A stretch of DNA of 64,000 bases, from assembly GCA_013336225.1 (NCBI GenBank), contig JAAXUC010000001.1, positions 35,949-99,948 on the forward strand, read 5' to 3'. This stretch comes from Candidatus Moraniibacteriota bacterium (lineage in GTDB: Bacteria > Patescibacteriota > Minisyncoccia > Moranbacterales > GWC2-37-73). The notes below the pieces were generated by a model. That model was not told the DNA's origin, ran no database searches, and worked only from the letters and a program-made list of their open reading frames with translations. Numbering within the stretch: position 1 is the first letter of the stretch; each line of letters begins with the position of its first letter. Positions 440 to 49,460 of the stretch are shown here, in pieces. A program made the position numbers and the translations under genes.

Positions 440-587
440 GATTACGAATTGTAATTTCGAAGTATGAATTTTGAATTTCGAATGAAATCTTAATGATTTA
501 ATGTTTCAAACATTGGAAATTCAAAATTAAAAATTTATTCAAAATTCAAAATTCAAAATTAAAAATTCCCCTGAAACTCTGCGAGTC
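440..587. repeat. Palindromic intergenic heptamer-arm element, copy R1. Left arm is GAATTTY repeats, then a central AATGTTTCAAACATT hairpin, then a right arm of AAAATTC repeats.
   Basis: Seen directly in the sequence. The element is an imperfect long palindrome and is homologous to the copies at 1077-1229, 11764-11883 and 48124-48281. Confidence 0.6.
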
Positions 588-1076: not shown

Positions 1077-1229
1077 AAAGTACAAATAGTGAGTTTTATT
1101 TTAATATTAATTTCGAATTTTTAATTCTGAATTTCGATTGAATTTTTAATGTTTCAAAATTGAATGTTTAAAGCATTTTGATTTGATTCAAAATTCAAAA
1201 TTGGAAATTCAAAATTTTTTATTAATGCT
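1077..1229. repeat. Palindromic intergenic heptamer-arm element, copy R2
   Basis: Same architecture as R1: AATTTCGAATTT arms, a central AATGTTT..AAACATT-like hairpin, and AAATTCAAAATT arms. Confidence 0.55.
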
Positions 1230-6463: not shown

Positions 6464-8836
6464 ATGAACTCAAATTTCATTTCACAAAGATTTAAAAGTA
6501 ACTCAGGAAAAAACAAATGGAAACTTGCTTGGAAAGCACTGGCAATTCTTTTTGGAGCTGGAATTGTGACTGTCATAGGCATATTTTTGTATTTTGCTAA
6601 AGATTTGCCAAGCGCAAATTCGGTGGATGCAAAATTGGTGGTGCAATCCACAAAAATTTATGATCGCACCGGCGAGCATCTTTTGTATGATGTGCATGGA
6701 GAAGAAAAGAGAACAGTGATTCCTTTCGATCAAATCCCGGACAATGTGAAATATGCAACCATTGCACTGGAAGATCAAACTTTTTATACGCATCATGGTG
6801 TGGATCCGAAATCAATCTTGCGTAGTGCGCTTAAAGATGTGATTAAGGGAGGAGCCGCGCAAGGTGGCAGCACCATAACTCAACAATTCATCAAGCAAAC
6901 TTTGCTCAGCAATGAAAAAACCATCACCAGAAAAATTAAGGAAGTCATTTTGGCAATTGAACTTGAACAGAAATATACCAAAGACGAGATTTTAAACATG
7001 TATTTGAATCAGATTCCGTATGGTTCAAGCGCCTATGGAGTGGAAGCTGCTGCACAGACATTTTTTGGGAAAGCAGCTAGAGATTTGACGTTAGCGGAAG
7101 CAGCTTTGTTGGCATCACTTCCAAATGCCCCAACCTATTATTCTCCTTTTGGCTCTCATACCGATGCCTTGGTAGGCAGAAAAAGTTCAGCTTTGCAGAA
7201 AATGGCTGATCAAGGCTATATCACGCAAGAGCAAGCAGATGAGGCAAAGAAGGTGGACATTTTGGCGGAAATAAATCCAAAACTAGACAACATATCAGCT
7301 CCACATTTTGTGATGTATGTGAAAGATTATTTGGAGCAAAAATATGGCGAGCAATCAGTGGAACAAGGAGGATTGAAGGTGTATACAACACTTGATTGGG
7401 ACAAGCAACAAGCAGCCGAAAAAGCAGTGAGTGAGGGTGCAGAAAAAAACGTTGCCAATAAAGCTTCCAATGCAGCACTGGTGGCTTCTGACCCAAGAAC
7501 AGGACAAATTCTGGCAATGGTTGGCTCCAAAAACTATTTTGACAAATCCATTGATGGACAGGTCAATGTTGCAATCCGTGATCGCCAGCCTGGTTCATCT
7601 TTCAAGCCATATGCATATCTGACAGCTTTCACAAAAGGATACACTCCGGAAACATTGATTTATGACGTGCCGACAAATTTTTCCACGGATGGTGAAAAAG
7701 ATTACACTCCACAAAACTATGACGGGAAGTTTCATGGGCCGCTGCAAATGAAAAATACGCTACCAATGTCACTCAACATTCCCGCTGTGAAAACTTTGTA
7801 TCTGGCTGGACTCAATGATGCCACAGCGCTAGCCAAAGGTTTGGGAATAACTGGGCTCAATGATCCATCGCGCTATGGCCTGTCTTTGGTTTTGGGTGGT
7901 GGCGAAGTTAAATTGATTGATCATGTGAATGCCTATGGTGCGTTGGCCGCTGGAGGAGTTCATCGGGATATCGCAATTATCATGAAGATCGAGGATAAGG
8001 ATGGAGCTGTGATTGAAAAATATAAAGACAATCCTGGCAATCGCGTGGTGGAAGAAAAGTATGTGGCTATGCTTGACTATATTATGTCTACCAATGAATT
8101 TAGAGCTCCGGTTTTCGGTGAAAACAGCCCGTTCAAATTTGTGGATCGTCCGGTGGCTGCAAAAACTGGAACAACCAATGAATTTCGTGATGGTTGGGCT
8201 ATGGGATATACGCCTTCAATCGCAGTTGGTGTTTGGGCTGGAAACAATGACAACACTTCCATGAAAGTCGGTGCCGATGGAATCGTGGTGGCAGCTCCAA
8301 TTTGGAGAAGTTTCATGAATTTCGCTTTGGGCAACAGCGCAATTGAACAATTTCCAAAATATGAAAAAGAAGATGCTGGAAAAGATGTGTTGAATGGAAA
8401 ATCTGATTCACAGAAAAATTTGAAAGTTTGTAAAATAGAAGTTAAGAAATACAAAGATAAGATTGGAAAATATTGTTTGGCCAATGACAGTTGTCCATCT
8501 GGCAGTGATGATAAAAAAGATTTTGCAACTGCTCACACCATTTTGTATTATGTGAACAAAGATGACCCACGAGGAGAAGCTCCAGCAAATCCGGAAAAAG
8601 ATCCTCAATTCAAGAACTGGGAAAGCGGCGTGCAAGAATGGTTCAAGGGCGAAAACAAAGATGATAATGGTGCCGCCCCAACAGAGGAGTGTAAGGAGGA
8701 ATATTTTCCTAAGCCTAAGGAGAAAGATTCCTCTGAAGAAAAACAAGCAGCTCCAACTTGCTCTGACGGTAGTCAAAATGGAGATGAAACAGGGGTGGAT
8801 TGTGGTGGGTCATGCAGTGCTTGTCTTATAATTTAA
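6464..8836 (+). CDS. Class A penicillin-binding protein (bifunctional transglycosylase/transpeptidase) with an unusual Cys-rich C-terminal extension
   Basis: It has an N-terminal TM helix, GT51 motifs (ALEDQTFYTHHGVD and STITQQ), a transpeptidase domain with SSFKP and KTGTT, and a C-terminal tail ending CSDGSQNGDETGVDCGGSCSACLII. Confidence 0.85.
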   Translation: MNSNFISQRFKSNSGKNKWKLAWKALAILFGAGIVTVIGIFLYFAKDLPSANSVDAKLVVQSTKIYDRTGEHLLYDVHGEEKRTVIPFDQIPDNVKYATIALEDQTFYTHHGVDPKSILRSALKDVIKGGAAQGGSTITQQFIKQTLLSNEKTITRKIKEVILAIELEQKYTKDEILNMYLNQIPYGSSAYGVEAAAQTFFGKAARDLTLAEAALLASLPNAPTYYSPFGSHTDALVGRKSSALQKMADQGYITQEQADEAKKVDILAEINPKLDNISAPHFVMYVKDYLEQKYGEQSVEQGGLKVYTTLDWDKQQAAEKAVSEGAEKNVANKASNAALVASDPRTGQILAMVGSKNYFDKSIDGQVNVAIRDRQPGSSFKPYAYLTAFTKGYTPETLIYDVPTNFSTDGEKDYTPQNYDGKFHGPLQMKNTLPMSLNIPAVKTLYLAGLNDATALAKGLGITGLNDPSRYGLSLVLGGGEVKLIDHVNAYGALAAGGVHRDIAIIMKIEDKDGAVIEKYKDNPGNRVVEEKYVAMLDYIMSTNEFRAPVFGENSPFKFVDRPVAAKTGTTNEFRDGWAMGYTPSIAVGVWAGNNDNTSMKVGADGIVVAAPIWRSFMNFALGNSAIEQFPKYEKEDAGKDVLNGKSDSQKNLKVCKIEVKKYKDKIGKYCLANDSCPSGSDDKKDFATAHTILYYVNKDDPRGEAPANPEKDPQFKNWESGVQEWFKGENKDDNGAAPTEECKEEYFPKPKEKDSSEEKQAAPTCSDGSQNGDETGVDCGGSCSACLII

Positions 8837-8851
8837 AATTACTTACAAAAA

Positions 8852-9424
8852 ATGATTGCAAAATTAAATGGCACAATTGATTTTATTCGGGATAACTATG
8901 TTGTAATCAGTGTGGGAGGAGTCGGCTATAAAGTTTTCGTGACTGTGCACACCTTTGGGATGATTGCAGGCAAAAAAGAAATCGACCTTTATACGCACAC
9001 CTATGTGCGCGAAGATATCTTGGCGCTATATGGTTTTTTGGAAATGGCAGAATTGGACATGTTTGAACTTTTGATTTCAATTTCCGGCATTGGTCCCAAA
9101 GCGGCCATGGGCATTTTGGCTATTGCTGATCCGAAAACAATTTCCATGGCAGTACTCAATGAAGATCCTTCAATTTTGACCAGGGTTTCTGGTGTGGGTA
9201 AAAAAATTGCACAAAGAGTTATTTTGGAACTCAAAAATAAAATCACTGACATGCCAGTGGCTGAAAAAGCGCAACTGGAAAGTGATTCCGATGCATTTGA
9301 AGCTTTGGTGGCAATGGGATATTCAGTGTCAGAAGCGCGCGAAGCGCTCAAGCTTGTTCCAGTCAAGATCGAAGATGTGGGAGAGCGTGTGAAGATGGCG
9401 CTAAAAAGTCTTGGACGAAAATAA
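8852..9424 (+). CDS. ruvA: Holliday junction DNA helicase subunit RuvA
   Basis: The N-terminus MIAKLNGTIDFIRDNYVVISVGGVGYKVFV and the HhH region ISGIGPKAA are both typical of RuvA. Confidence 0.85.
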   Translation: MIAKLNGTIDFIRDNYVVISVGGVGYKVFVTVHTFGMIAGKKEIDLYTHTYVREDILALYGFLEMAELDMFELLISISGIGPKAAMGILAIADPKTISMAVLNEDPSILTRVSGVGKKIAQRVILELKNKITDMPVAEKAQLESDSDAFEALVAMGYSVSEAREALKLVPVKIEDVGERVKMALKSLGRK

Positions 9425-9557
9425 AACAAAATTATATTTTCTAAATGGCATGCATTTCAAACTCTGTGGTATAATGTTAATACTTGAACAAAATAAAAAT
9501 TAAAAAATAAACTAAAAAATTGTTTCGCGGATAATTTTAAAGGTTTATTATTCAGTC

Positions 9558-10607
9558 GTGAAAACTAAACACAAAGGTTCCATTTTGGCATATTCTTTGA
9601 TCATTCTTTCCATGATGCTGGCAATTGCAGCGTCTCTTTCGGTGACCACTATTATTGACAAGAAAAGTGCGAGTGCAACGCAAGCTTCCGTGCAAGCTCT
9701 GCAAACTGGAGATAGTGGGATCCAGTTGGCGCTTAAAAAAATCAATGCAAATCTGACATTGGCAATTAATGACGCTGCAAATTTTGGCACTATCGGTTGC
9801 ACTGATAGCGGCACTGCCACAATAACCAGTCAGGCTTTGCAAGGAGGAAGCGAATATGTGTTAAGTTTTTATGATGTGAGTGGCGATCCAGTGTTGTGTA
9901 ATGCCTTGGCAAATAAGATTGGGATTGTTAAATCGGTTGGAACATACAAAGGTACAGCCAGAGTTGTGAGTGTAGGGATAGGTACATCATGTCCTGCAAC
10001 AATTAGTGATAATGATTCTCCAGCAAATGTTTATGCAACAGTTAGAATTGGGACGCAATGCTGGATGGCTGAGAATTTAAGAACGACCAAGAAGCCAGAT
10101 GGAGTAACAGCTTTAATAGAGGGCAATGGAATGTATTCATCAAATCCTGCAGGCACGGGTTCTCCCTGGGGTAGGTTGTATGACTGGACGACAGCGATGA
10201 ATAGTCCTACTGCAGCAGCTGCAACTGGCGAAAAAATACAAGGTCTTTGTCCGACTGGCTGGCACATTCCCTCCAATTTCAATTCATCTTCCTTGGATAA
10301 TTGGCAAATGTTGTCAGACTTTTTGGGTGGAAATAATGTCGCTGGTGGAAAAATGAAAAGCACTGACTTAAGCCATTGGAACATTCTCAATGCTGACAAT
10401 TCCAGTGGATTTGCTGGGGTGGGTGCCGGCTACTGGGAAGCAGGCACATATAAAAATGGTGGTGATTTGGCATATTTTGTTTCTTCAGATGAGCAAAATG
10501 GCAGTGATGTAAAGGCTAAGGTTTTGTCAGCTGCAGACGCCAAATTTGACACTTCTAATAGTATAGCTAAGACCGTTGGAATGTCTGTGCGCTGCATCAA
10601 GGATTAG
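9558..10607 (+). CDS. Fibrobacter succinogenes major paralogous (FISUMP) domain protein with an N-terminal membrane anchor. GTG start.
   Basis: The C-terminal half matches the FISUMP pattern (IGTQCWMAENL...YDW...CPTGWHIPS...SGFAG.GAGYW...SVRCIKD), and the N-terminus is a hydrophobic anchor. An extended -10 (TGGTATAAT) lies upstream at 9467-9475. Confidence 0.7.
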   Translation: MKTKHKGSILAYSLIILSMMLAIAASLSVTTIIDKKSASATQASVQALQTGDSGIQLALKKINANLTLAINDAANFGTIGCTDSGTATITSQALQGGSEYVLSFYDVSGDPVLCNALANKIGIVKSVGTYKGTARVVSVGIGTSCPATISDNDSPANVYATVRIGTQCWMAENLRTTKKPDGVTALIEGNGMYSSNPAGTGSPWGRLYDWTTAMNSPTAAAATGEKIQGLCPTGWHIPSNFNSSSLDNWQMLSDFLGGNNVAGGKMKSTDLSHWNILNADNSSGFAGVGAGYWEAGTYKNGGDLAYFVSSDEQNGSDVKAKVLSAADAKFDTSNSIAKTVGMSVRCIKD

Positions 10608-10692
10608 TTTGTAAAGCAAAAAAGTTTAGACATAATTCAAAGAGTCTTTTTCAATAAGACTCTTTTTGTTTTCCTGGTTTTCCTGATATACT

Positions 10693-11763
10693 TTGGGTAT
10701 GGAAAAAAATAAGCAAAATATGGATTTCTTGCAGTCAGAGGCTTGGCGAAAATTTCAAGAAGCTGCTGGACGAAAAACCTCACATTTGGAAGGTGATGGT
10801 TTTTCAGTGAGCATCATTGAACATCAATTGCCGATTGTGGGGAAATATTTGTATGTACCAAAGGGACCAGTAGCCTCGCTTGAAGGCGAGGAATTTCCAA
10901 TTTCCAATAACCAATTTCCAATAAAATCTCAATTTCCAATTTCCAATGACCAAATAAAATGCGGAATGCGGAAATTGATTGATTTGGCTAAAAAGGAAAA
11001 TGCTGGTTGGATTCGGATTGAACCTGCTGACAAAAAAACATTGGAATCGATCAAGGAAAATATTTCAGAAAAAGTCATCAAAGCGCCACATGACATGCAG
11101 CCGCGGGAACTTTTTGTGTTGGACATCGCAAGGTCACCGGAGCAATTGCTGACTGAAATGAAAACCAAGACGCGCTACAACATTGGCATTGCGATGAAAA
11201 AAGGTGTTACGATCGATCATTCACAAACGGAAGCTGGTAAAAAGAATAAAGAATTGTATCTGCATGCATTTTTGCGACTGACCAAAGAGATGGCGGAGCG
11301 GCATGGAATTGCTGCGCACAGCGAGGAGTATTATCAAAAAATGGTTGAAAGTTTGCCCGACGAAATGCTGCGAATCTATGTGGCAAAATTTGAGGACAAA
11401 ATCATTGCAGCTAATCTGGTTCTATTTTATGGCGATACTGCGGTGTATCTGCATGGAGCTTCTGGCAGTCTGCACCGAAACTTGATGGCGCCATTTTCTT
11501 TGCAATGGCAAGCCATTTTGGACGCCAAAGAACTGGGCTACGCAAAATATGATTTTGGGGGCGTGCGTATACAAGATACAAAATACAAGATACAAAATAC
11601 AAACAAGTGGGAAGGGATTACCACCTTTAAAACGGGATTTTCGCCGAGAACAAAGCCGGTTGTGTTTCCTGGAAGTTATGATATTATCATAAATCCTCGC
11701 AAATATTGGGCATATCGTGGATTGCAGGCAGCGAAGTCGTTTGCGGTTAAATTTAGAAAATAA
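10693..11763 (+). CDS. FemAB-family peptidoglycan interpeptide-bridge aminoacyltransferase, carrying two in-frame heptamer-repeat insertions
   Basis: Conserved FemX/FemAB blocks are present (QSEAWRKFQ, KTRYNIGIAMKKG, FYGDTAVYLHGASGS, FKTGFSP). The tandem repeats at 10891-10955 (CCAATTT units) and 11568-11607 (ATACAAG/A units) are translated in frame. Confidence 0.75.
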   Translation: MGMEKNKQNMDFLQSEAWRKFQEAAGRKTSHLEGDGFSVSIIEHQLPIVGKYLYVPKGPVASLEGEEFPISNNQFPIKSQFPISNDQIKCGMRKLIDLAKKENAGWIRIEPADKKTLESIKENISEKVIKAPHDMQPRELFVLDIARSPEQLLTEMKTKTRYNIGIAMKKGVTIDHSQTEAGKKNKELYLHAFLRLTKEMAERHGIAAHSEEYYQKMVESLPDEMLRIYVAKFEDKIIAANLVLFYGDTAVYLHGASGSLHRNLMAPFSLQWQAILDAKELGYAKYDFGGVRIQDTKYKIQNTNKWEGITTFKTGFSPRTKPVVFPGSYDIIINPRKYWAYRGLQAAKSFAVKFRK

Positions 11764-11883
11764 TGTAATAAAAAATTTCGAATTTCCAATTTTGAATTTT
11801 GAATCAAATCTGAATGAATTAATGTTTAAAAATTTGAAACATTAGAAATTCATTCAAAATTCAAAATTCAAAATTTAAAATTA
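11764..11883. repeat. Palindromic intergenic heptamer-arm element, copy R3
   Basis: Arms of AATTTCGAATTTCCAATTTTGAATTTTGAA, a central AATGTTTAAAAATTTGAAACATT hairpin, and arms of AAATTCATTCAAAATTCAAAATTCAAAATT. Confidence 0.6.
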
Positions 11884-13230
11884 ATGCATAGAATCAAAAA
11901 AATTGTGCCCCAATCCATCAAGAACCTTTACCATTTGGCACAAGCTCTTACTGCTAATGTGATTTATGGTTTTCCATCTCGAAAAATAAAAGTGATTGGC
12001 ATCACTGGCACTGATGGCAAGACGACCACGGCGCAAATGATTGCGGGAATTTTGCAGGAAGCTGGAAAAAAAGTTGCCTTGGCTTCGACCATTAATTTTG
12101 TGATCAATGGAGTGGAAGAAAAGAATCTTTCACATTATACGACGGAATCAGCTTTCAAATTGCAAAAATTCATCAGACAAGCAGTTGGGGCAGGCTGCGA
12201 ATATTTGGTACTAGAAACTTCTTCGCACGCATTGGACCAACATCGCGTTTGGGGAGTGGAATATAAAGCTGCAGTTGTCACCAATGTGACCAGGGAACAT
12301 TTGGATTATCATGAAACCATGGAAAAATATCGAGCAGCTAAAAAAAGGCTTTTTGAAGTGGTAGAGAAAAATAAGGGAACAGTCATTGTTAACCTTGATA
12401 TGGAAAAACCGAAAGAGTTTTTGAATTTCAAAGTTAATAAAAAGTTTGCCTATACGACAAATAGTGAAAACCTGGATTCCCTGCCCACCGGCAGGCAGGC
12501 TGATTTTCGCGGGAATGACAAGGAAAGGGTCGGAATGATAAAAAGCGATGTGGAAATGATTCAGGCTGAGAATATCAGGCTTGGAATTGCTGGTTCTTCA
12601 TACGAAATACGAAATACGAAATACGAAATACATTTGCCAGGTGGATATAACATTGAGAATGCCCTTGCAGCATCGTGTGTGGCTCTTGGTGAGGGTGTTG
12701 GCATGGAAACGATTAAAGAGGCGCTGGCAAAAATCCGAGGCGTGGCGGGGCGAATGGAGGCCATAGAGAACGATCTGGGATTGCACATTTTCATTGATTT
12801 CGCACTGACCCCAAATGCCTTGGAAAAGCTTTATGCGGGGCTTTCTAGAGCCAAAAAATCGGGAGCAAGAATCATCGCAGTTTTCGGATCATGTGGCGAT
12901 CGCGATAAAGGCAAGCGTCCAATTATGGGCGAAGTTGTTTCGCGCTACACTGACATAATTGTTCTCACTAATGATGAACCATATCATGAAGATCCCCAAC
13001 AAATAATCGAAGAAATTGCAGTTGGAATTAAAAACAAAACCGAAAATCAGAATCTTTTCAGAATTGCTGATCGACGCTTGGCAATCGCCAAAGCTCTCGA
13101 GCTTGCCAAAGCTGATGACATAATCTGTATTACTGGCATGGGCAATTTTGAAACCATGGTGGTGGGGGATGAAAAAATTCCCTGGAATGATCGAAAAGTT
13201 GTCGAAGAAGAGTTGGCAAAAATTGCCTAA
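11884..13230 (+). CDS. murE: Mur ligase, MurE-like (UDP-N-acetylmuramoyl-L-alanyl-D-glutamate--diamino acid ligase), with a 7-aa in-frame repeat insertion
   Basis: GITGTDGKTTT is the P-loop, and the Mur ligase middle and C-terminal domains follow. A tandem ATACGAA x4 at 12599-12632 encodes YEIRNTKYEI just before the conserved HLPGG.N..NALAA block. Confidence 0.8.
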   Translation: MHRIKKIVPQSIKNLYHLAQALTANVIYGFPSRKIKVIGITGTDGKTTTAQMIAGILQEAGKKVALASTINFVINGVEEKNLSHYTTESAFKLQKFIRQAVGAGCEYLVLETSSHALDQHRVWGVEYKAAVVTNVTREHLDYHETMEKYRAAKKRLFEVVEKNKGTVIVNLDMEKPKEFLNFKVNKKFAYTTNSENLDSLPTGRQADFRGNDKERVGMIKSDVEMIQAENIRLGIAGSSYEIRNTKYEIHLPGGYNIENALAASCVALGEGVGMETIKEALAKIRGVAGRMEAIENDLGLHIFIDFALTPNALEKLYAGLSRAKKSGARIIAVFGSCGDRDKGKRPIMGEVVSRYTDIIVLTNDEPYHEDPQQIIEEIAVGIKNKTENQNLFRIADRRLAIAKALELAKADDIICITGMGNFETMVVGDEKIPWNDRKVVEEELAKIA

Positions 13231-35741: not shown

Positions 35742-35813
35742 TACCCTCAGCAGGAATCGGACCTACATAACAAGCTTAGAAGGCTTGTGTTCTATCCATT
35801 GAACTATGAGGGC
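35742..35813 (-). tRNA. tRNA-Arg (anticodon TCT)
   Basis: Reverse complement GCCCTCATAGTTCAATGGATAGAACACAAGCCTTCTAAGCTTGTTATGTAGGTCCGATTCCTGCTGAGGGTA. D-stem GTTC/GAAC, anticodon loop CTTCTAA. Confidence 0.8.
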
Positions 35814-35829
35814 AAGTCCTCCCTAAAAA

Positions 35830-35989
35830 AGGATGTGGGTTATGCAGGATTTCTGCTCGCTCCGACTCGCAGCCTGGGTGCTACGCACAGAATGCTCGTA
35901 TTCCTCGCATCCTACTCGCACCCTTCGAATCTTTGCATATTTTAAATATTTTTTAAAAACTCTAAAAATAAAGAATTTTTAAAAAAATG
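35830..35989 (-). repeat. tRNA-Lys-associated mini-element. A GC-rich core of about 90 nt with a GAGCATTC box is bounded on one side by the intact tRNA-Lys 3' end and on the other by a 19-nt direct repeat of it (ATGTGGGTTATGCAGGATT on the + strand).
   Basis: The 19-nt identity between 35833-35851 and 35988-36006 was read directly. The arrangement is the attL/attR-like signature of insertion at a tRNA 3' end. Confidence 0.55.
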
Positions 35990-36062
35990 TGGGTTATGCA
36001 GGATTCGAACCTGCGACCGTCGGCTTAAGAGGCCGCTGCTCTACCAACTGAGCTAATAACCC
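35990..36062 (-). tRNA. tRNA-Lys (anticodon CTT)
   Basis: Reverse complement GGGTTATTAGCTCAGTTGGTAGAGCAGCGGCCTCTTAAGCCGACGGTCGCAGGTTCGAATCCTGCATAACCCA. It closely parallels canonical bacterial tRNA-Lys. Confidence 0.85.
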
Positions 36063-41995: not shown

Positions 41996-43228
41996 TTACT
42001 TCATTTTCAAATTTGCATGCGGTTGCATGGTTTTCCAAGCAGAAATTGATTTTTTTCTTTGCGCGTCTGACATTTTGTTCCAGCGAAAAGCAGCGGCAGC
42101 TGCAATCATGGCAGCATTGTCACCAGTCAAGGATAAGGCTGGGATAATATATGAAACTTCGGACAGATTTTTTTTAATAGCTTCGCCAAGTTGCGCGCGC
42201 AATTCTTTATTGGCACTGACGCCACCAGCCAGCAAAATTGTTTTTGGTTGGTGGGCTTCAGCTGCTTTGATGGTTTTTGCGACAAGCACATCCACAGTTG
42301 CTTGTTGAAATTCATGGCAGATTTCTGTAAGATATTTCTTATCTTTTAAAAGTTCTGGATGTTTTTTGGTTTCATATAGTACCGCAGTCTTGAGTCCGGA
42401 AAAAGAAAAATCATAATTTTTTTTGTTGAGCATTGGGCGTGGAAATTGTATTCCATATTTCGTATCTTGCATCCTATATGAGCCGTTTTGATTTCTGGTT
42501 TTTTCTTTTTGACATTTGTCATTTGGATCTTGAAATTTCTCAGCCATAGCTGAGACGACAGGTCCGCCCGGATAGCCAATTCCTAAAATGCGAGCGACTT
42601 TGTCAAAAGCCTCGCCAACTGCATCGTCCAAGGTTTGTCCGATGATTTCATATTGCAGATGATCTTTCATGAGAACGAGTTGGGTGTGACCACCAGACAC
42701 CACCAAGCATAAAATTGGGAATTTTATGCTTGGTGAATTTTGAATTTTGAATTTTGAATTTTGAACGATGGAAGATTCTTTTTTATTTGTAATTTCTGTA
42801 TTTCGAATTTGTTTGGAATTTAGAATTTGAGATTTAGGATTTACGCTAATGAAATTGGCGTAAATGTGCCCCTCAATATGATGAATTCCCAAAAGTGGCT
42901 TTTCCCAGAGATAGGAGAGGGTTTTGGCATAGCTAACCCCCACTAGCAGCGCTGGGATGAGCCCTGGGCCTTGAGTCACTGCAATGACATCAATGTGCTC
43001 TGGCGAAACTCCGGCCTCTCTCAGGGCAAAATCAAGCAAATGGTCGATATTTTTCACGTGCTCACGAGCGGCCAAGTTTGGCACAACTCCACCCCATTTG
43101 GCATGCAGTTTTATTTGCGAAGAAACCTCGCTGGCTAAAATTGCAAGTCCTTGAGCCGATGATTTCAAAATTGAAATTGCGGTGTCGTCGCAAGAAGTTT
43201 CAATGGAAAGTATTAGATTATTTGACAT
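41996..43228 (-). CDS. tsaD: tRNA N6-adenosine threonylcarbamoyltransferase TsaD (Kae1/Gcp family), carrying heptamer-repeat-derived in-frame insertions
   Basis: Conserved TsaD blocks are present (SIETSCDDTAISIL, GIHHIEGHI, VVSGGHTQL, GEAFDKVARILGIGYPGGP). An insertion of about 40 aa encoded by TTCAAAA/GAATTTT tandem repeats lies at 42733-42840, and a second QDTKYGIQ repeat-derived segment lies near 42405-42480. Confidence 0.85.
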   Translation of the reverse strand: MSNNLILSIETSCDDTAISILKSSAQGLAILASEVSSQIKLHAKWGGVVPNLAAREHVKNIDHLLDFALREAGVSPEHIDVIAVTQGPGLIPALLVGVSYAKTLSYLWEKPLLGIHHIEGHIYANFISVNPKSQILNSKQIRNTEITNKKESSIVQNSKFKIQNSPSIKFPILCLVVSGGHTQLVLMKDHLQYEIIGQTLDDAVGEAFDKVARILGIGYPGGPVVSAMAEKFQDPNDKCQKEKTRNQNGSYRMQDTKYGIQFPRPMLNKKNYDFSFSGLKTAVLYETKKHPELLKDKKYLTEICHEFQQATVDVLVAKTIKAAEAHQPKTILLAGGVSANKELRAQLGEAIKKNLSEVSYIIPALSLTGDNAAMIAAAAAFRWNKMSDAQRKKSISAWKTMQPHANLKMK

Positions 43229-47277: not shown

Positions 47278-48123
47278 ATGGTACAAAGACTTGTAAAATT
47301 TGTTGGAAAAGCCGCAGGAAAGGCAAAAAGTGTTCTTTTTGCTGATCCTAGGATGCTTTATGAAGAAGAACGGCAATTTCTCAATCAGCCGTTTTTTTTC
47401 GCTGGGCAAAATGGCAAAGGAGTGCTTCTCGTGCATGGCTGGACATCGACTCCATATGAGCTGAGACGTTTGGGGAAATATTTGAATGAAAATGGTTACA
47501 CTGTCCTGGGGATTCAATTGACTGGACATGGCACGGTGCCAAAGGACATTGAAGATGTGAAGTGGTCTGTTTGGATGAATGATATTAAAAATGGCTACGC
47601 GCAGCTCAAAAAGACTTGCGACAAGGTGTATATTGGCGGCACTTCCATTGGGGCAGTTTTAACCATGATGATGGCAAAAGAAAATCCTGAAATTGCTGGC
47701 ATCATTTTGATGGCCACTCCATATAAAATAAGACAAGAAAAGCTTGTGACAACAGCAGCCAAAATCGCAATTTTATTTGGGCAAAAATATCGCAAGAAAT
47801 TCTATCCTCCAACCTTTGGTATTTCTTCAACCATCACGCGCTTGATTTCATATCAAACCTATCCAATCAAGAGCGCCTTGGAAACTTTTGACTTAATCAA
47901 GGAGACCAGGAAAAATCTGGATAAAATCATGCAACCGTGTTTGCTGATGCAATCAACACATGATCATGTGGTGGAAAAAAACAGCATGGAAAATATCTAT
48001 AATGAAATTGGTTCTGAAATCAAAAAGAAAATATATATTGAAAAAGCCTATCACACCTTCATCTCCGATATTAAAAATGAGCACATTTTCATGGATATCC
48101 TGGAATTTCTGGATGGAAATTGA
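47278..48123 (+). CDS. Alpha/beta hydrolase (carboxylesterase/lysophospholipase-like)
   Basis: LLVHGWTSTPYEL and GGTSIGA (G-x-S-x-G) are present, with a C-terminal His region. Confidence 0.7.
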   Translation: MVQRLVKFVGKAAGKAKSVLFADPRMLYEEERQFLNQPFFFAGQNGKGVLLVHGWTSTPYELRRLGKYLNENGYTVLGIQLTGHGTVPKDIEDVKWSVWMNDIKNGYAQLKKTCDKVYIGGTSIGAVLTMMMAKENPEIAGIILMATPYKIRQEKLVTTAAKIAILFGQKYRKKFYPPTFGISSTITRLISYQTYPIKSALETFDLIKETRKNLDKIMQPCLLMQSTHDHVVEKNSMENIYNEIGSEIKKKIYIEKAYHTFISDIKNEHIFMDILEFLDGN

Positions 48124-48281
48124 GTTTTTTTATTTGAGATTATTTCGTGCTTTTATTTGTATCTACAAATTTTTAATTTTTAATTTATAATTTTTAATCA
48201 AATCTAAATTTCTGAATTTTTAAATTAAGACATTGAAAATTCATTTCAAATTTCGAATTTCAAATTAAAAATTTTGGAAAT
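48124..48281. repeat. Palindromic intergenic heptamer-arm element, copy R4 (more degenerate)
   Basis: Tandem AATTTTTAATTT arms, a central hairpin, and a right arm of AATTTCGAATTTCAAATT, directly upstream of the GT4 start. Confidence 0.5.
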
Positions 48282-49460
48282 ATGCGCGTAGCGATATTTA
48301 CAAATAATTACCTGCCTAATCCTTATGGCGTTGCGGGATCAATCGAAAGTTTTCGCAAGGAATTTGAAAAGCTTGGACACAATGTCTATATTTTTGCGCC
48401 GGAGACAAAGGGCTATGTAAATGAAAATCCGCATGTCTTTTTTTATTCTGCACTTAATTTGAGATTTAAAAATATCAAGTTTCCAATTGCAATTCCATAT
48501 TCCTACCGCGTTGATAGGATTTTGGAAAAATTGGAAATTGATGTGGTGCATTGTCAGCATCCAAATTTACTTGGAAGTGCTGGGAAAAAATGGGCGCAGA
48601 AAAAAAACGTACCCTTGGTTTTCACTTGGCACACTTTGTATGACAAATATGCTCATTTTGTGCCACTTATTCCCAGCTCTTGGGCTGCTAAATGGGCGAT
48701 TGGAAATGCAGTTGGCTTTGCCAATGATTGCGATCAAATTGTGGTTCCCACGCAGGGCGTGAAAAACATTATTGAAGCTTGGGGAGTTATAAATGAAAAT
48801 ATTGTTGCAATTCCAACTGGCGTGCAAGAAAGTTTGGTTGCAACTGATGGCAGAGAAAAAGCTCGCCACGAATATGAAATTACTGATGATGAAATTGTGA
48901 TCACGTTGGTTTGTCGCATCACACCTGAAAAAAACGTGCTTTTCCTGGCTAATGCGATGAAAAATATTTTGCAGAAAAATGAAAAAGCAATTTTTGTGTT
49001 GGCTGGTGACGGCAGCGATTTGGCAGAGGTGAAAAAAATGTTAACCAATGACAAGATTGGTCAGCGGTTCAGGTTTTTTGGCATCGTGAACAGCGAAGAA
49101 AAAAGCAGGATTTATGCGATGTCGGACATTTTCGTGTATGCCTCAAAATCAGAAACCCAAGGCATGGTACTGACAGAGGCGATGAGTGCTGGCTTGCCGA
49201 TTGTGGCAGTGGAAGCCACTGGCGCAAAAGACTTGGTGGAAAATGGCCAAACAGGATTTTTGGTCGAAGAAAATGAAACTGCTTTTGTTAATGCAGTGCA
49301 AAAATTGATTGATGGGGAAAATTTGCGAAAAAGTTTTGGTGAAAATGCCAGAAAAATTGCCATGGAAAAATATACCAGTCAAGCTTGCGCCGCAAAAATG
49401 CTGGCTGTTTATGAGGAGGTTGTTAAAAGAAGAAAGCAGCTAAACCCTCATCTGTCATGA
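48282..49460 (+). CDS. Glycosyltransferase family 4
   Basis: The GT-B C-terminal block is YASKSETQGMVLTEAMSAGLPIVAVEATGAKDLV. Confidence 0.8.
   Translation: MRVAIFTNNYLPNPYGVAGSIESFRKEFEKLGHNVYIFAPETKGYVNENPHVFFYSALNLRFKNIKFPIAIPYSYRVDRILEKLEIDVVHCQHPNLLGSAGKKWAQKKNVPLVFTWHTLYDKYAHFVPLIPSSWAAKWAIGNAVGFANDCDQIVVPTQGVKNIIEAWGVINENIVAIPTGVQESLVATDGREKARHEYEITDDEIVITLVCRITPEKNVLFLANAMKNILQKNEKAIFVLAGDGSDLAEVKKMLTNDKIGQRFRFFGIVNSEEKSRIYAMSDIFVYASKSETQGMVLTEAMSAGLPIVAVEATGAKDLVENGQTGFLVEENETAFVNAVQKLIDGENLRKSFGENARKIAMEKYTSQACAAKMLAVYEEVVKRRKQLNPHLS

Follow-up and report, generated by a model that had tools for sequence, protein, structure and literature searches.

How does a tandem repeat whose unit of seven nucleotides is not a multiple of three come to lie within the reading frames of conserved enzymes, and does it serve any purpose there? 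This question is raised by femX and murE, two neighbouring cell-wall genes in a 64-kb stretch of DNA (hereafter the window, to which positions refer unless a relative's contig is named). The window belongs to a 165,923-bp contig from a metagenome-assembled genome (MAG) of Candidatus Moranbacteria, within the candidate phyla radiation (CPR)/Patescibacteria. At a probability of roughly 0.6, we hold that the tracts are heptanucleotide simple sequence repeats (SSRs), similar to short tandemly repeated repetitive (STRR) sequences and of a kind abundant in the Moranbacteria clade, that they are made and homogenised at the DNA level, and that they persist in genes only where a 7-residue-periodic peptide is harmless. 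The original prediction for this locus had named a contingency mechanism and neutral repeat invasion as alternatives; of these, neutral repeat invasion fits best.

Both genes had been assigned correctly at the family level. The open reading frame (ORF) of femX (10693..11763, plus strand) encodes a FemAB-family aminoacyltransferase with Pfam matches to FemAB (9e-37) and Acetyltransf_6. Alternative starts are used at 10699 in the Logan call and at 10720 in the NCBI call; the protein is a 100% match to the NCBI Ca. Moranbacteria protein P0001, and P0241 is the same from residue 3 onward. The ORF of murE (11884..13230, plus strand) encodes a UDP-MurNAc-tripeptide synthetase of the Mur ligase family (Pfam Mur_ligase_M and Mur_ligase_C; PDB MurE matches at 1e-58) and is a 100% match to the NCBI protein P0121.

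Period 7 in the window

Exact self-matches at lag 7 form five long runs in the window, where 0.05 are expected from shuffled sequence. No long run occurs at lags 4-6 or 8-13, and the single exact run at lag 14 corresponds to the array in femX where ATACAAG and ATACAAA alternate. When mismatches were tolerated, a scan yielded 12 arrays with period 7 and two with period 5; periods 6 and 8-12 gave none. Under a stricter windowed scan, seven period-7 tracts remained, against none in shuffles and none at periods 5, 6, and 8-10; three of them are genic (femX, murE, and a tsaD homolog) and the other four form palindrome arms between genes. In the window, no period other than 7 is enriched, and the excess at period 7 lies far beyond chance. 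With arrays of 4.6-5.0 units by Tandem Repeats Finder (TRF), the tracts belong among long SSRs, taken as at least three tandem 7-nt copies above chance. Units in the window include AATTTCC, ATACAAR, ATACGAA, and ATTCAAA, and the repeat sequences, coordinates, and translations originally reported for femX and murE were all reproduced by TRF and ORF translation.

MAG assemblies can mishandle repeats, and the contig of an independent assembly (Logan) breaks within the intergenic palindrome between femX and murE. An assembly error, or else convergence at the protein level on a 7-residue peptide repeat, might therefore be suspected. However, the Logan assembly matches the window base for base over 7309-11802, including both femX tracts, which are therefore not the artefact of one assembler. 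Orthologous tracts recur in many independently assembled genomes, and the reading frames are intact. Convergence is further contradicted by a period of 7 nt, rather than just 21 nt, that extends to silent positions and rare codons. Both possibilities are effectively refuted.

The murE tract and its turnover

The tract in murE (12600..12631, plus strand) is a perfect (ATACGAA)x4.6 array with 100% matches by TRF, encodes YEIRNTKYEI, and is the sole ATACGAA array in the window. It had been proposed to be an insertion into an SSYEIHLPGG block, tolerated in a surface loop, and neither part of that proposal survives comparison with homologs. In an alignment of 32 MurE homologs, the window protein has no extra residues at the tract. 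Hairpin spacing was then measured in 102 homologs as the distance between an upstream anchor and the 'PG' in the motif LPGxFNxENA. The spacing equals that of the window in 87 of the 102; 14 are longer, through other inserts at the hairpin tip, and the single seemingly shorter homolog is a mis-anchor; hence none is shorter, and the presumed short form exists in none of them. In an AlphaFold2 model of MurE (mean predicted local distance difference test score, pLDDT, 84.7), the tract lies on a two-stranded beta-hairpin with strands at residues 238-242 and 245-249 and local pLDDT of ~88-91. Thus, rather than a loop insertion, the tract overlies an ancestral, ordered beta-hairpin whose length has not changed.

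At the orthologous 32-34 nt of murE, the relatives L081 and L082 carry a perfect (ATTCGAA)n array and L083 a perfect (ATACAAA)n array. Decayed heptamer arrays with the units AGTTACN, TTCATGN, CTAWAAG, and ATACTTT/ATACATA are found in L093, L087, L091, and L005/L006; the site is weakly periodic in L089, and in distant Parcubacteria it has equal length and no periodicity. The perfect arrays of different lineages differ by one base at the same position in every unit, and these changes hit all three codon phases, with K-to-E, Q-to-R, and silent outcomes. Furthermore, the tract is built of the genome's minor codons (TAC 0.17, ATA 0.11, CGA 0.12, and ACG 0.14), implying that the DNA repeat, and not codon choice, dictates the sequence. 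Unit changes shared by all copies in three codon phases, together with the minor codons, mark evolution at the level of DNA. On these sequence comparisons, the murE tract is a coding microsatellite in concerted DNA-level evolution at constant total length. Its 7-residue repeat, Y-E-I-R-N-T-K (pattern Y/F-x-I/L-x-N-T/S-x), reproduces the native strand-turn-strand pattern, and this mimicry is presumably the reason that the tract is tolerated.

Intergenic palindromes and femX site 1

Four palindromes of ~110 nt with alignable arms and core are dispersed over the 64 kb, as a family of palindromic elements would be. All are described on the plus strand: 441..568, between the co-directional ORFs 1-432 and 588-1073 (core at 481-494); 1099..1216, between ORFs 588-1073 and 1230-1886; 11774..11882, the femX-murE spacer, an inverted repeat with 54-nt arms that ends 1 nt before the murE ATG; and 48167..48274, between ORFs 47278-48123 and 48282-49460 (core at 48196-48209). 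Their arms have the form (AATTTYG)n ... (CRAAATT)n. The four share one orientation, occupy short spacers between co-directional genes, and end ~1-20 nt before the next start codon, which is not preceded by an obvious Shine-Dalgarno sequence. For the copy at 11774-11882, the predicted RNA fold has an energy of -28.7 kcal/mol (z = -5.2). An Rfam scan of the window returned tRNAs only and no family for the palindrome. Comparable heptamer-armed spacers precede murE in L083 and L084, and L081 has a GC-rich palindrome instead. The palindromes may be intercistronic terminator, stability, or translation elements.

The original prediction had linked the coding heptamers to these palindromes, and the link holds for femX site 1 (10891..10955, plus strand). 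This imperfect AATTTCC tract comprises two copies of a ~32-nt unit (TRF periods 7, 14, and 32; period-7 array at 10892-10953) and encodes EFPISNNQFPIKSQFPISNDQ. Its DNA and the left palindrome arm run in register, with four heptamers followed by AATnAAATCTnAAT, and the exact core AATAAAATCTCAAT lies at 10920-10933. The 14-nt core AATnAAATCTnAAT occurs exactly four times in the 64 kb, in three palindromes and in femX site 1. The site is therefore an in-frame half-copy of the intergenic palindrome (left arm and core, duplicated), similar to the Rickettsia palindromic elements (RPEs). The notion that a single heptamer family underlies all tracts stands for this site, which shares palindrome-arm sequence, but is not confirmed for murE and femX site 2, whose units ATACGAA and ATACAAR are one or two substitutions away from the arm units.

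Among homologs, femX site 1 falls in a hypervariable indel region and is absent in some orthologs and present in others; the same loop contains (TCCAATT)x4.9 in L084, (AAAGTCG)x4.7 in L081, or nothing. Residues 63-82 of FemX, which correspond to the site, are predicted as coil (pLDDT <50) and are flanked by a strand and the helix at 85-101; a surface location of the kind expected of RPE-like elements is predicted by the models for femX site 1 only. Immediately downstream, a short AATGCGG x2.3 repeat (10958..10973, plus strand, by TRF) lies in the conserved 'K.GM..L' part of femX, where its residues (K-C-G-M-R-K) are conserved in homologs; it is likely a minor or chance array. AATGCGG presumably also underlies the 'RNAECGM / IPHSAFR' peptides, which are frequent among hypothetical proteins of environmental origin.

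A second insert in MurE is not made of heptamers. It spans residues 201-220 (12484..12543, plus strand), has the sequence LPTGRQADFRGNDKERVG, shows pLDDT <50, and falls in an indel region of alignment A2. Inside this disordered insert lies a GC-rich 16-mer, CGCGGGAATGACAAGG (12508-12523), which is also coding in the murE of L093 (4547-4562) but lies in the femX-murE intergenic palindrome of L081 and L082 (9969-9984 in L081). Taken together, the AATTTYG-type element in femX and the GC-rich 16-mer in murE indicate that two intergenic repeat families have contributed coding sequence.

Several further observations concern the inserts of these two protein families. The peptides 'LPTGRQA/PAGRQ' and 'RGNDK', akin to the GC-rich murE insert, recur in many FemX and MurE homologs. 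In the MurE clusters P0132, P0244, and P0247 (alignment A3, columns 61-71), a 10-residue insert, GNLVKSGDHGAR, follows the P-loop helix and is present or absent among proteins sharing 93-99% identity; P0122, P0123, and P0205 have comparable inserts. The C-termini in these three clusters are mosaic (with or without FGCIVSS), which points to recombination.

A rival explanation is that all coding tracts are in-frame pieces of the palindrome, inserted as an RPE-like element or a miniature inverted-repeat transposable element (MITE) and kept where the peptide is on the surface. The in-register left arm and 14-nt core of femX site 1 speak for it, as do 'NFQFPIS'-type peptides, which recur in relatives at differing places in the MurE, FemX, and pyruvate kinase proteins, and a GC-rich element that is intergenic in L081 and coding in the murE of the window and of L093. 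RPEs supply a precedent (PMC10969869). However, murE shows no insertion whatever at its tract, no coding copy contains both arms, and femX site 1 itself holds the left arm and core only. The tracts of murE and femX site 2 are without element-specific sequence, and the units of both, like those of many tracts in relatives, differ from the palindrome arms. Neither target-site duplications nor a link to a transposase were found for the elements in the 64-kb window, though these were not looked for systematically. Insertion of a mobile element is thus an unlikely explanation for the tracts as a whole.

Tracts in variable loops and true insertions

The second femX site, femX site 2 (11569..11603, plus strand), consists of (ATACAAG ATACAAA)x2.5 and encodes IQDTKYKIQNT (TRF period 7, 5.0 copies; period 14, 100%). 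It lies in a loop between YDFGG and WEGITxFK that is variable in the family: it has 21 residues in the window, whereas the shortest relatives have 11 and Weissella FemX (1NE9) has 12. Relatives carry other heptamer units or an unrelated insert at this site, and a low-confidence region of the FemX model (residues 291-326) covers it. For FemX, therefore, the earlier placement of the tracts in loops was borne out: homolog alignment and model both put them in variable loops that are predicted to be disordered.

Cell-wall genes are not the only hosts, since heptamers also occur in tsaD in the window and in pyruvate kinase in relatives. The tsaD ORF (41996..43228, minus strand; PDB TsaD 4YDU, 1e-73) encodes the tRNA t6A threonylcarbamoyltransferase. 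Relative to E. coli TsaD, it has two heptamer-containing insertions, at about 42728-42832 and 42455-42538, and the alignment to 4YDU breaks at query residues 133-167 and 231-258. The first insertion contains a perfect (AAATTCA)x4.6 tract (42734..42765, minus strand; TRF TGAATTT, 4.6 copies, 100%). The heptamer-encoded peptides of the insertions are QNSKFKIQNS, from this tract, and YRMQDTKYGIQ. These TsaD tracts sit inside true insertions. Elsewhere in the window, four tRNA genes cluster within ~520 nt (35546-36062, minus strand), out of eight tRNAs in all.

Distribution and length of the arrays

Scans of the window and its relatives support the claim of a genome-wide and clade-wide heptamer phenomenon that reaches coding sequence. 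Relatives have perfect arrays, built from a wide range of A-rich units, in femX, murE, pyruvate kinase, and other ORFs. Moranbacteria-like loci hold most of the period-7 excess, which weakens in loci from other CPR and from outside the CPR. Close relatives of the window were fetched singly; among the matches listed by a scan of genome contigs, relatives reached at most 56% identity. Seven loci with CPR-like MurE and conserved synteny (L007, L011, L014, L015, L017, L022, and L028) bear the public titles Bathyarchaeia, Bdellovibrionales, or Gammaproteobacteria and are probably mis-binned or mislabelled.

Across 313 kb of Moranbacteria-like loci, the number of exact arrays falls off between 14 and 19 nt, with one cluster at 24-27 nt and another at 31-34 nt. 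Eleven arrays make up the latter class, 10 of them in genes, and none exceeds 34 nt.

Arrays of 31-34 nt, equivalent to a 10-13 nt seed plus three units, are ~5-fold enriched in ORFs of at least 600 nt over non-ORF sequence (17/55 vs 3/39, p = 0.009), which fits selection passing only frame-preserving expansions. The earlier idea that units come in multiples of three can be retained as such a selection filter. In its literal form it was rejected, given arrays of 4.6 and 5.0 units and the abundance of 24-27 nt arrays in ORFs as well. Preservation of the reading frame follows from total gene length and not from unit counts in multiples of three.

A metagenome scan for (ATACGAA)x3 retrieved at least 120 loci (L094-L213). 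Among the matches listed, array lengths fall once more into groups of 24-27 and 31-34 nt but extend to 103 nt, the encoded peptides are NTKYEIRNTK or, on the other strand, FRISYFVFRISY, and there is neither a murE nor a close relative of the window.

These lengths bear on another explanation, namely that the periodicity is selected as a functional cis-element, either ~four heptamers bound by a heptamer-reading protein (cold-shock or S1-type OB-fold) or the arms of a structural RNA. In its favour are the 31-34 nt mode, with no longer exact array in the Moranbacteria-like loci, and the conservation of periodicity at the murE site despite turnover of the unit sequence. The intergenic elements, moreover, form stable folds, have one orientation, and end at start codons. 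According to PMC4692102 and PMC4679880, other heptamer families prefer four units and sit upstream of start codons, and CspB binds heptamer repeats. Conversely, the great diversity of units argues against sequence-specific recognition, and tracts at the murE site have decayed in many lineages. Coding tracts occupy insertion-tolerant positions, as junk would, and lengths of up to 103 nt occur among the matches listed from the broad metagenome sample. A selected cis-element is accordingly improbable.

Repeat number in close relatives

If gain or loss of 7 nt switched femX, murE, or tsaD and thereby generated cell-wall heterogeneity, as contingency or phase variation would have it, repeat number should vary among close strains. 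The idea has an evident basis: 7 is not a multiple of 3, so slippage by a single unit shifts the frame, and heptanucleotide SSRs drive phase variation in Haemophilus hmw promoters (PMC8262952). Five near-identical pairs from different samples (L081/L082, L084/L085, L089/L090, L091/L092, and the murE side of L087/L088) span 21.3, 21.3, 7.6, 10.9, and 7.7 kb, and each carries arrays. Between the members there are 1-11 mismatches and no indel at all. The window is likewise identical to L086, with no indel in an independent assembly. Length differences within 90% clusters do not lie at repeats, and the arrays are short (<5 units) and keep the same length across lineages that are ~70% identical.

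The genes concerned also fit poorly with switching. MurE, the FemAB transferase, and TsaD are single-copy housekeeping enzymes, considered essential by extension from other bacteria, and a single-unit change would shift their frame. Loss of MurE or TsaD is expected to be lethal, as would be the OFF state. On this evidence, phase variation is very improbable.

Several apparent cases of repeat variation were rejected. P0241, in the 90% cluster of the window FemX, is 7 aa longer than the NCBI call owing to an alternative start. Differences of 7 aa in the P0132, P0179, and P0045 clusters trace to alternative starts, to a C-terminus that has been swapped (FGCIVSS), and to unrelated inserts. Close strains do differ in other short inserts, which may be present, absent, or replaced. 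The femX units of L087 and L088 differ (ACAAGAA vs ACAAGAT); this is not fast in situ change but an imported allele. Between L087 4217-5401 and L088 1889-3118, the middle of femX is 6-12% diverged with wholly different inserts, beside a murE that is 99.9% identical, which implies allele replacement by recombination with breakpoints inside femX.

Directly downstream of murE, L087 (7952-9821) and L088 (5669-7538) carry a cassette resembling a diversity-generating retroelement (DGR), with bAvd and an RVT_1 reverse transcriptase, which is absent there in the window. The variable regions of DGRs are longer than the tracts, change at adenine-specific positions, and lack a heptamer period. On this general knowledge, DGR mutagenic homing was rejected as a means of length-preserving rewriting.

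A proposed slippage origin and its difficulties

A plausible course of events for heptanucleotide SSRs of DNA-level origin is as follows. Tracts would arise from short microhomologies spaced seven nucleotides apart, through replication slippage or out-of-register pairing. Their homogeneity could be kept by repair of misaligned slipped-strand intermediates, leaving length unaltered. Selection would purge frameshifting length variants (+/-1 or 2 units), so that genes would come to hold a surplus of arrays made of a seed and three units (31-34 nt). The tracts themselves would have no switching function.

Several points weigh against this scheme. Stepwise slippage by single units would have to traverse lethal frameshifts, and the route to a perfect 4.6-unit array at fixed gene length is one that we infer. 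The second length mode of 31-34 nt, with no array above 34 nt, has a counterpart outside genes, where the one long intergenic array and the near-perfect palindrome arms also measure ~31 nt; a pure frame filter therefore does not explain the mode. The occurrence of ATACGAA arrays in contigs of 32 to 70% GC, many of them in long ORFs among the matches listed, hints at something beyond local slippage. Finally, the palindromes, with their consistent orientation and position abutting start codons, may be functional, which leaves room for a function of the tracts.

One speculative way to accommodate these points, to which we assign a low probability, is an active, length-limited process that would write or maintain tracts of ~4.5 heptamers (~32 nt) on top of existing sequence without changing its length. 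It might act by templated patch-homogenisation or through selection by a protein that reads four heptamers in DNA or mRNA.

Relation to known repeat systems

Heptanucleotide repeats are reported to be the most abundant class of long SSRs in most prokaryotic genomes, and an origin by polymerase slippage has been proposed (Mrazek et al. 2007, via PMC4679880; PMC4692102); repeats with non-triplet units are described as disfavoured within coding sequence (Mrazek et al. 2007, via PMC4679880). The GGGNATC repeats of Xanthomonas and Nostoc are described as preferring four units and as depleted in ORFs (PMC4692102), and the TAACTGA repeats of Beggiatoaceae and cyanobacteria as lying just upstream of start codons and sometimes yielding LSVISYQ repeats in hypothetical proteins (PMC4679880). 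The Moranbacteria arrays resemble these families in being short and of few copies (~4 units for GGGNATC; mode 4.4-4.9 here). They are also scattered, enriched per base in co-directional intergenic spacers and near start codons, and occasionally encode 7-aa-periodic peptides.

Unlike the published families, each built on one motif, the units here are rich in A/T and vary widely, which means that the size preference cannot be put down to G-quadruplexes. Moreover, those families are depleted in coding sequence or lie in hypothetical proteins, whereas many of the longest arrays here are in MurE, FemX, TsaD, and pyruvate kinase. The murE array differs further in its position on an ordered ancestral element, its conserved length, and its concerted unit turnover. 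The host of the arrays, moreover, is a CPR/Patescibacteria lineage. The resemblance to cyanobacterial STRRs is one of kind only; neither unit sequences nor host are matched here. The STRR units used for comparison are reportedly those of Mazel et al. 1990.

With SSR contingency loci, such as those of Haemophilus and Neisseria, the tracts share a non-triplet unit in or beside genes and, on paper, the potential to shift frames. They differ in having short arrays with no observed repeat-number polymorphism, in housekeeping genes rather than surface or restriction genes. Repetitive extragenic palindromic (REP) sequences, bacterial interspersed mosaic elements (BIMEs), and MITEs are likewise comparable to the intergenic palindromes as multicopy hairpins of ~110 nt with consistent orientation in short co-directional spacers. 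The arms here, however, are tandem heptamers with no Rfam match, and no transposase or target-site duplication was identified, neither having been systematically sought. RPEs (Ogata et al. 2000), which insert in frame in housekeeping genes (PMC10969869), offer a parallel in that a dispersed palindromic family also occurs in frame within unrelated housekeeping genes, at positions that suit both fold and function of the protein (femX site 1 and the GC-rich element in murE). Yet RPEs are ~100-150 bp, complete, and encode a conserved peptide, whereas femX holds a half-element, the arms are heptamer SSRs, and the murE tract is no insertion.

Heptamer SSRs and in-frame palindromic elements are thus already known. 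The present case unites features of these systems, and its novelty has three parts: a CPR host, arrays lodged within conserved enzymes (one of them over an ordered ancestral hairpin), and unit turnover that is concerted yet leaves length constant. No description of such a case came up when the open-access literature was searched in full text for heptanucleotide repeats in Patescibacteria.

Implications for Patescibacteria

There are practical consequences. Recurrent low-complexity peptides such as NTKYEIR, NFQFPIS, and KSKVESR can mislead homology searches, alignments, and gene calling, and heptamer tracts break short-read assemblies. The narrow size distribution also bears on the unresolved question of why 7-nt units dominate the long SSRs of bacteria. 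Were an active process at work, a single system would serve both the hairpins adjacent to start codons and the essential genes, and it would explain the 31-34 nt mode, the persistence of periodicity under unit turnover at murE, and the four-unit preference seen in other phyla.

If the interpretation as heptanucleotide SSRs is correct, the small, streamlined genomes of CPR/Patescibacteria tolerate non-triplet microsatellites inside conserved core enzymes. In murE, the tract would have taken over the stretch that encodes an ordered beta-hairpin without altering its length, providing a clean natural example of concerted evolution at the DNA level under a strict protein-length constraint. Heptamer tracts may, in addition, feed the many lineage-specific inserts of CPR proteins.

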